A DNA stretch of 64,000 nucleotides from sequence record OR062945.1. One strand, written 5' to 3'. Source of the stretch: Escherichia phage 308Ecol101PP. Below, piece by piece: positions 35,817 through 36,502 of this stretch. Every line of letters starts with the position of its first letter. Position 1 is the first letter of the stretch. A program made the translations under genes and the position numbers. The notes under the pieces are model-generated. The model had not been told where the DNA came from. It did not search any database and saw only the letters and a list, made by a program, of their open reading frames with translations.

Positions 35817-36047
35817 ATGTCTACTGAAACTATCGAAAAACTGCAGTCTGAAATCGTTACTCTGAAATCTCGCATTCTTGATACTCAAGACCAAGCAGCT
35901 GCTATCCAGCAAGAATCTCAGCAACTTGGTAGTGCTCTTGCTAAAATCGCTAATCTGGTTGGTATCACTGGCGAATCAGTTAAGATTGATGACCTGGTAG
36001 AAGCAGTACGTGAACTTGTTAAAGCTGAAACCACAGAAGAAGAATAA
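35817..36047 (+). CDS. 57A: tail fiber assembly chaperone gp57A
   Basis: 76 aa coiled-coil; ...[18 protein letters not shown]...; synteny. Confidence 0.75.
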
Positions 36048-36502
36048 TGAAATTTGAGGACTTTTCACAAGGCCTCTACGTCGCAGCTAAATTTTCGGAA
36101 TTAACACTTGATGCGCTGGAAGACCTCCAGCGCAAATTAAGAATTCCTAATCCAGTACCACGTGAAAAGCTTCATTCAACAATTTGTTATTCACGTGTAA
36201 ACATACCATATACTACATCTAGTGGTAGTTATTCTGTTGCCGAATCAGGACACTTTGAGGTATGGAAAACTGACGACGGCGCTGTACTGGTTTTAGTTCT
36301 TGATTCTGAATATCTTAGATGTCGTCATCAGTATGCACGAGCTTTAGGTGCTACTCATGATTTCGACGACTACACTCCACATATAACGTTATCATATAAC
36401 GTTGGCCAACTATCATTCAGTGGTGATGTAGCTATTCCGGTTATTCTCGACCGTGAATACAAAGAACCCTTAAAACTAGATTGGGCCGAAGATCTAAAAT
36501 AA
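36047..36502 (+). CDS. acb1: 2H-phosphoesterase Acb1 (gene 57B), anti-CBASS cyclic-oligonucleotide nuclease
   Basis: 151 aa; two H-x-T motifs (HSTICY, HITLSY) typical of 2H phosphoesterases; position after 57A as in T4. Confidence 0.85.

Follow-up and report, generated by a model that had tools for sequence, protein, structure and literature searches.

The Acb1 (gene 57B) orthologue of a Mosigvirus and the cassette region that begins behind it

Acb1, the product of phage T4 gene 57B, was identified through activity-guided fractionation (Hobbs et al. 2022, PMC9117128) and is directed against the cyclic oligonucleotide-based antiphage signaling system (CBASS). Cleavage by the T4 enzyme is metal-independent, occurs 3' of adenosine via a cyclic phosphate intermediate and is carried out by the tetrad H44, T46, H113 and T115; the H44A/H113A replacement removes the activity. 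The bases of the ligand are stacked by Y12, W74, F107 and W147, E141 contacts adenine N6, and residues 145-152 form a lid closing over the ligand (PMC9117128). Structures of the orthologue from Erwinia phage FBB1 are available for the apo enzyme (PDB 7T26) and for the complex with 3'3'-cyclic GMP-AMP (cGAMP; PDB 7T27). On a CBASS-expressing host acb1 is conditionally essential for T4 (HIDEN-SEQ preprint, 10.1101/2025.11.20.689424), and the adjacency of acb1 and ipI in T4 has already been read as an anti-defence island (Hobbs et al. 2022, PMC9117128). Acb1 is one main route of CBASS escape for T4-like phages, and it is also a liability, because the cA3 depletion that Acb1 causes is sensed by type II Panoptes (PMC13577387). 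Here we describe the acb1 gene of Escherichia phage 308Ecol101PP and its surroundings in a 64,000-nucleotide stretch of record OR062945.1 (hereafter the window, to which all positions refer).

Two further described systems are relevant to the DNA behind the gene. The T4 internal proteins Ip1, Ip2 and Ip3 act as inhibitors of GmrSD, each against a different subtype (PMC12373910), and Bas37_0260, encoded at the ipI locus of another T-even phage, is an inhibitor of McrBC (10.1101/2025.11.20.689424). Promoter-early stem-loop (PeSL) elements of T4-type phages are described as preferring hyperplastic regions, where they lie beside open reading frames (ORFs) that differ between close relatives; the T4/PST promoter consensus is given there as TTTACW-N17-TAYWAT (Arbiol et al. 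2010, PMC2839356; Comeau et al. 2014, PMC4122927). Promoter and terminator activity and the formation of mini-circles were shown for the elements of RB49/phi1 only (PMC2839356).

The ORF following gene 57A in the window encodes a protein of 151 residues (Table 1). When compared with T4 gp57B (NP_049750.1) by BLASTP, 129 of the 151 residues were identical (85%) in a full-length alignment with zero gaps (E = 2e-102). The Pfam model Acb1 (PF23474), whose cut-off is 27 bits, gave a score of 197.3 bits (E = 1.3e-58), all of its 144 profile positions (1-144) being covered, and residues 9-148 were aligned with chain residues 2-142 of FBB1 Acb1 in 7T26/7T27 (E = 1.1e-58). A preliminary description of this DNA, made from the letters alone, had recognized a 151-residue ORF with two H-x-T motifs after 57A and had named it 57B/Acb1; both statements agree with these results. 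A lone HxT tripeptide is weak evidence, and it is the whole-protein statistics, in which three independent comparisons concur, that are decisive. The 4.6-kb stretch around acb1 is 96-97% identical to Mosigvirus genomes including PNJ-9, vB_EcoM_G53 and phage 55, by which the phage is assigned to Mosigvirus. The ORF is almost certainly the Mosigvirus orthologue of T4 gene 57B, encoding an anti-CBASS 2H phosphoesterase for which a mechanism and a genomic setting are proposed below, and sequence evidence could hardly make the Acb1 assignment more secure.

The window protein shares with T4 Acb1 the catalytic tetrad, the stacking residues, the adenine-reading glutamate and the C-terminal lid. With the numbering shifted by one (T4 = window + 1), all nine residues named above for T4 were found in the gap-free alignment: H43, T45, H112 and T114 of the tetrad (in the motifs H43-S44-T45 and H112-I113-T114), Y11, W73, F106 and W146 of the base stack, and E140. 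The lid (residues 144-151) reads LDWAEDLK, compared with LDWADDLK in T4. Six of these positions (H43, T45, H112, T114, Y11 and E140) were invariant in all eight aligned Straboviridae sequences, which comprised the window protein and those of T4, Jiaodavirus Mineola, an Acinetobacter phage, RB49, Aeromonas phage 44RR2.8t, a Vibrio phage and Slopekvirus Miro. The preliminary description had proposed alignment with T4 Acb1 as a check on its reading and had held that loss of the histidine motifs would speak against it; in the alignment the catalytic His/Thr tetrad was kept. The two proteins differ in that the window protein is one residue shorter at the N terminus and carries 22 substitutions, none of which falls on a residue named as functional; moreover, it is encoded by a Mosigvirus and not by a Tequatrovirus, and activity of the window protein is a prediction. 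The gene occupies the same genomic slot as in T4, after 57A and before ipI. At the nucleotide level it is 75% identical to T4 acb1, with 0.126 nonsynonymous (dN) and 1.84 synonymous (dS) substitutions per site and a dN/dS of ~0.07, values that place it under strong purifying selection. Because of the match to 7T26, the window protein is expected to have the same compact 2H phosphoesterase fold and active site as FBB1 Acb1, which is a more distant orthologue from a phage infecting another host genus.

Older annotation offers a different function. In the RefSeq records of T4, HX01, Mineola and Miro the protein carries the name 'RNA ligase', the description of PHROG 755 is likewise 'RNA ligase', and the Pfam model 2_5_RNA_ligase2 gave a weak match to the window protein, so that a LigT-type 2'-5' RNA ligase, or a phosphoesterase of RNA repair, acting on RNA ends and not on immune messengers, could be argued for. 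However, the 2_5_RNA_ligase2 match (15.9 bits) was under its own cut-off of 27 bits, in comparison with 197 bits for the Acb1 model, and the pocket for the cyclic nucleotide, with its base-stacking residues and adenine-reading glutamate, is conserved. Furthermore, the 85% identical T4 protein cleaves cyclic oligonucleotides biochemically, and its deletion sensitizes T4 to CBASS (PMC9117128; 10.1101/2025.11.20.689424). In view of the sub-threshold match and the T4 biochemistry the RNA ligase interpretation, which we consider highly improbable, was rejected. The label still weighs against an anti-CBASS function, but it is older, was given by homology to LigT-like 2H enzymes, goes back to the sub-threshold 2_5_RNA_ligase2 match and is superseded by the biochemistry. 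Two other points weigh in the same direction. The substrate range of the window orthologue is assumed to be that of the 85% identical T4 enzyme and of FBB1 Acb1, and the time at which it is expressed has been extrapolated from the transcriptomes of T4 and from promoter matches close to the consensus (see below); chemistry and the anti-CBASS phenotype, too, are carried over from the experiments with T4 and FBB1.

On these grounds the anti-CBASS activity of the window protein can be envisaged as follows. During infection Acb1 would bind the messengers made by the cGAS/DncV-like nucleotidyltransferases (CD-NTases) of CBASS, namely 3'3'-cGAMP, cUA, cAAA and cAAG. The bases would be stacked between Y11, W73, F106 and W146, one adenine being read via E140, and the H43/T45 and H112/T114 tetrad would cut 3' of adenosine, with a 2',3'-cyclic phosphate as intermediate. 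In consequence the effector of CBASS would stay inactive, and abortive infection would be avoided. An intact acb1 helps to predict which hosts the phage could infect.

The gene itself is nothing new, as had been stated in the preliminary description. Proteins 100% identical to it are already in GenBank, for example those of the O157 typing phages 3 and 6, and in one existing record Acb1 is annotated as 'cyclic phosphodiesterase'. Because identical proteins have been deposited and the link to ipI has been published, both the gene and its linkage must be regarded as known, and the presence of acb1 is ordinary for a T4-like phage.

Upstream, acb1 belongs to a conserved block. The TAA stop codon of 57A (36045-36047) and the ATG of acb1 (36047-36049) share one base (TAATG), an arrangement suggesting that acb1 is translationally coupled to 57A. 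The same one-base overlap was found in Mineola, 44RR2.8t, D481 and Bhz15, the overlap in T4 comprises four bases, and the 57A stop overlaps the 57B start in most of the eight genomes compared. These were the genomes of T4, of Mosigvirus phage 55 and of RB49, 44RR2.8t, Miro, Vibrio phage D481, Acinetobacter phage Bhz15 and Mineola; of the last six, five are assigned to other genera. The order 3-1-57A-57B was present in all eight; further upstream of gene 1 in the window lie gene 3, gene 2 and gene 4. Downstream of 57B the genes depended on the lineage: the T-even phages have ipI, RB49 has small ORFs and dmd, 44RR2.8t has an ORF for a DksA-like zinc-finger protein, and the Vibrio phage has ORFs together with tRNAs. 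The number of phage records with tblastn matches dropped steeply along the window, from 1993 for gp2 (1430 near full length) and 1489 for Acb1 (1462 near full length) to 291 for IPI and 35 for the 87-residue product of the second ORF after acb1. By these counts acb1 behaves like a near-core gene among T4-like phages; it is situated at the 3' edge of the conserved block.

T4 57B/acb1 is expressed mostly at middle and late times according to T4 transcriptomes (10.64898/2026.03.30.715471). In the window a putative middle promoter (ATCGCTTCT, 12 nt, TATAAT) precedes gene 1 at ~35023-35052, and a sequence agreeing with the late-promoter consensus, TATAAATA, lies within gene 1 at 35455. By analogy with T4, acb1 would be transcribed as the last cistron of 3-1-57A-57B at middle and late times.

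The DNA changes in character directly after the gene. A 47-nt element starts 11 nt after the acb1 stop codon, consisting of GTTTACA, a spacer of 17 nt (N17), TACTAT or TATAGT, and a hairpin of 10-12 bp. Eight copies are present locally, elements 1 to 3 of Table 1 and those at ~40268-40314, 40829-40875, 43923-43969, ~45214-45260 and 45482-45528, and further copies lie near 3456, 51747, 56118, 58810 and 60286. A 20-nt degenerate pattern covering the 3' half of the element gave 13 matches in the window, all on the + strand and eight of them within 9 kb after acb1, against 0.18 expected. With this pattern no copy was found between 3456 and 36536, a looser early-promoter pattern left the same gap, and neither pattern detected an element upstream of acb1 in this interval. 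Hairpins are formed by six of the eight local copies, with folding energies between -13 and -18 kcal/mol and z between -3.2 and -5.5, and stem sequences vary between copies with the pairing kept. The enrichment is limited to this specific pattern, unlike the result of a generic scan for sigma-70 promoters and terminators between 34.9 and 39.7 kb, in which the matches were not enriched over shuffled sequences (15 promoters against 16.2 expected, 4 terminators against 3.0).

By sequence these repeats match the PeSL cassettes of T4-type phages. Their boxes fit TTTACW-N17-TAYWAT or, in four copies, deviate solely at position 5 of the -10 box (TATAGT), so that the whole set reads TTTACW-N17-TAYWRT; like published PeSLs they combine these boxes with a 10-12 bp hairpin, occur on the coding strand only, cluster in a hyperplastic region and flank an ORF which one close relative has and another lacks (see below). 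They differ from them in that the hairpin overlaps the spacer and the -10 box, and that two of the eight local copies have no stable hairpin. No Mosigvirus PeSL was found in the portions of PMC2839356 and PMC4122927 that were examined. As we picture the region, early promoter/stem-loop repeats of the PeSL type would bracket the exchangeable cassettes of a hyperplastic region directly after acb1, with ipI as the first of them. Acb1 itself lies outside this array, as the terminal gene of the conserved block, since the repeats start only past its stop codon.

The preliminary description had placed internal-protein-like genes immediately after acb1, and this was correct: ipI follows at +77 bases, and a second ORF with an MKTYKEF leader comes next. 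The product of the first is 88% identical to T4 IPI. Its 19-residue leader, MKTYKEFISPVANVSTLTE, ends in L-T-E19, in agreement with the L/I-x-E rule for prohead protease sites, and the 76 residues of the mature part match the IPI* domain. The gene is accordingly named ipI, a true member of its family as judged from these features, and its product is a predicted injected GmrSD inhibitor. Two orthologues of experimentally supported anti-defence genes thus stand side by side, 77 bp apart. The locus resembles the variable ipI locus of T-even phages in the IPI identity to T4 and in the L-T-E leader end before the mature domain, and that of Bas37 in having two genes (10.1101/2025.11.20.689424); it differs in that the second gene, of 87 codons, has no detectable similarity to IPI past the leader.

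Altogether five ORFs of the window, starting at 36579 (ipI), 36936, 39592, 48227 and 49311, begin with a leader of the form M-K/Y-T-Y/F-x-E-F-I/L. The third (39592..40218, +) encodes 208 residues with a Pro/Lys-rich middle segment; 43 nt before its start, at 39549, lies the late-promoter sequence TATAAATA, as is expected for a head protein. The last two (48227..48508 and 49311..49640, both +) are found just downstream of the lysozyme gene e. All four T-even proteins with a capsid-targeting leader that have been characterized inhibit type IV restriction (PMC12373910; 10.1101/2025.11.20.689424). Because of this precedent, set by Ip1, Ip2, Ip3 and Bas37_0260, a counter-defence role is a fair prediction for the leader-bearing ORFs, drawn by analogy.

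The preliminary description had gone further and had taken acb1 as support for a defence reading of the unknown cassettes downstream. Of this claim, the adjacency of acb1 and ipI is real and the extension to the leader-bearing ORFs is plausible; the other cassettes receive no direct support. A counter-defence neighbourhood is established for acb1 and ipI, and the leader-bearing ORFs are plausible members of it. For the remaining cassettes a defence role would be read from context; for those with leaders, precedent adds to it. The argument from context is weaker than had been stated, for four reasons. First, acb1 lies outside the variable array, and its position reflects the boundary between the conserved block and the variable region as much as functional clustering. 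Second, none of the 23 downstream ORFs up to nudE matches a solved protein by sequence, and the significant Pfam matches among the 15 scanned are to domains of unknown function only. Third, tRNA genes, nudE and e occur in the same stretch; none of these is, to our knowledge, known as a counter-defence gene. Fourth, the island idea for acb1-ipI is already contained in the work of Hobbs et al. 2022.

These considerations raise the question of whether the adjacency is a by-product of genome architecture, in which case a near-core acb1 at the edge of a block would say little about the accessory genes next to it. The linkage of 57A to 57B in all eight compared genomes, next to downstream genes that differ completely by lineage, is what such a by-product would look like, and so are the fall in record counts from Acb1 to IPI and the 87-residue protein, the stop/start coupling of acb1 to 57A with no PeSL upstream, and the presence of tRNA genes, nudE and e in the region. 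The two genes also appear to have had separate histories: compared with T4, ipI shows 83% nucleotide identity and a dS of 0.81, well below that of acb1 (see above). Together with the mosaic of amino acid identities to T4 further on (IPI 88%, trna.4 84%, trna.3 38%, trna.2 85%), the dS contrast is consistent with exchange of cassettes between Tequatrovirus and Mosigvirus. On the other hand, the hyperplastic regions of T4-like phages are rich in host-interaction genes, and known anti-defence genes recur just 3' of 57B in separate lineages: ipI in T4 and Mosigvirus, the anti-McrBC gene Bas37_0260 at the ipI locus and, three genes on, dmd in RB49; gp2, which shields DNA ends from exonuclease V (RecBCD), is encoded upstream. 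Weighing both sides, we put the architectural explanation at somewhat short of an even chance; it is compatible with a counter-defence island, so that the two need not compete. What the analysis has yielded in passing is a precise map, in which a near-core anti-CBASS gene is followed by exchangeable cassettes punctuated by PeSL-like elements, and from this map a short list of candidates for new injected inhibitors, the leader-bearing ORFs starting at 36936 and 39592.

The first of these candidates, the 87-codon ORF, is a sporadic cassette. Its family forms only two clusters among 5.8 billion proteins. The second cluster comes from the Dhakaviruses IME341 and IME08, where a 73-residue protein, 63% identical over the body and without the leader, is encoded at an unrelated locus, with the topoisomerase gene 52 on one side and motA on the other. 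The ORF of the window is bracketed by elements 2 and 3 in a cassette of 332 bp. In Mosigvirus HX01 the same site holds one PeSL and lacks the ORF, a difference of 332 bp, and the end points of the gain or loss fall within the repeats. The ribosome-binding site (RBS) and the leader-coding sequence form a 30-nt repeat common to ipI and this ORF (36572-36601 and 36929-36958, 90% identical). The sequence relationships suggest that the leader was fused onto a pre-existing small, cytoplasmic protein. No BASEL phage was among the 35 tblastn matches, so that, assuming that Bas37 is in that collection, the protein is not a detectable homologue of Bas37_0260. AlphaFold2 modelling from an alignment of three sequences gave a mean predicted local distance difference test score (pLDDT) of 45.8 and was unusable. 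It is a tentative idea, which we think rather unlikely to prove right, that the product of the ORF is a new counter-defence protein that is injected, its most plausible role being inhibition of a type IV restriction enzyme, and that it arose when the leader was joined to a small cytoplasmic early protein. If true, this would be a natural case in which a cargo is brought into the phage head through fusion to a leader and travels as a PeSL cassette. This PeSL-bounded, leader-bearing cassette is the sole item of the locus that might repay experiment.

Table 1. Positions of acb1 and of the features around it in the 64,000-nucleotide window
Feature	Position	Strand	Basis or remark
Gene 1 (deoxynucleoside monophosphate kinase)	35078..35812	+	Pfam DNMK, E = 1.4e-96
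Gene 57A (tail-fibre chaperone), 76 residues	35817..36047	+	Pfam GP57, E = 5.9e-23
acb1 (gene 57B), 2H phosphoesterase, 151 residues	36047..36502	+	Predicted cleavage of CBASS cyclic di-/trinucleotides
First catalytic motif, H43-S44-T45 (T4 H44/T46)	36173..36181	+	Sequence; role from PMC9117128
Second catalytic motif, H112-I113-T114 (T4 H113/T115)	36380..36388	+	Sequence; role from PMC9117128
PeSL-like element 1, upstream of ipI (GTTTACA, N17, TACTAT, 10-bp hairpin)	36513..36559	+	-13.2 kcal/mol, z = -3.2
ipI, internal protein I	36579..36866	+	Pfam IPI_T4 (PF11634), E = 1.3e-50, residues 20-95
PeSL-like element 2 (12-bp hairpin)	36868..36914	+	-17.7 kcal/mol, z = -5.2
ORF of 87 codons, MKTYKEFIAE capsid-targeting leader; sporadic cassette, candidate injected protein	36936..37199	+	PHROG 13302, unknown function
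PeSL-like element 3	37200..37246	+	96% identical to element 2
trna.4-, trna.3- and trna.2-like ORFs and ORF of 171 codons	37262..38618	+	PHROGs of unknown function

The remaining cassettes were characterized by database searches. The 23 ORFs downstream of ipI (36936..47259), joined by linkers, were compared with all PDB chain sequences, and no match to a solved or anti-defence protein was obtained; only linker and low-complexity artefacts appeared, the best of them with E = 0.011 (a major histocompatibility complex (MHC) chimera). The significant Pfam matches among the 15 ORFs scanned were DUF7275 and DUF7277, both on a 318-residue protein. A match to Peptidase_S78_2 on a downstream ORF scored 16.8 bits against a cut-off of 24 and was disregarded. 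All 23 ORFs belong to PHROGs described as 'unknown function' or 'membrane protein'. The model of the 171-residue protein was confident (pLDDT 90.5), and its fold search returned no match. A pull-down with DRT1 enriched two proteins of T4, of which Trna.2 is one (PMC13275509); for the trna.2-like ORF at 37808..38098 this is a weak lead, resting on its similarity to the T4 protein.

The tRNA genes of the downstream stretch are tRNA-Met (38698-38772) and tRNA-Arg (38776-38852), and these two were the only Rfam matches between 35.0 and 48.5 kb (E <= 0.1). The 94-nt 'tRNA-Lys' annotated in phage 55, which corresponds to window positions ~39385-39480 on the + strand, was not reproduced in the window by ARAGORN or by Rfam at the same threshold.

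Some repeated features of the small downstream ORFs were also observed. Three tandem paralogous ORFs (43126..43431, 43441..43713 and 43723..43920, all +) encode products of 101, 90 and 65 residues, all with W-(V/I)-(S/A)-S-S-x-x-C at the end. Of these products the first two match the C-terminal part of PHROG 899, and a 48-nt repeat extends across the stop/start junctions of the ORFs (43399-43446 and 43681-43728). The peptide F-I-(K/M/T)-E-C-R occurs at or near the C terminus of several unrelated ORFs (42374-42395, 43106-43127, 45817-45852 and ~46990-47026), three of them for predicted membrane proteins. For three of the ORFs with this peptide the underlying DNA, TTTATTAWGGAATGTAGARAAT or AAAGAATGTCGAGGAAAATAATATGA, is itself a repeat (families D12 and D7), located directly upstream of, or extending into, the start codon of the next gene, where the RBS would lie. 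The common C-terminal peptide may reflect a conserved junction module rather than a function of the proteins.

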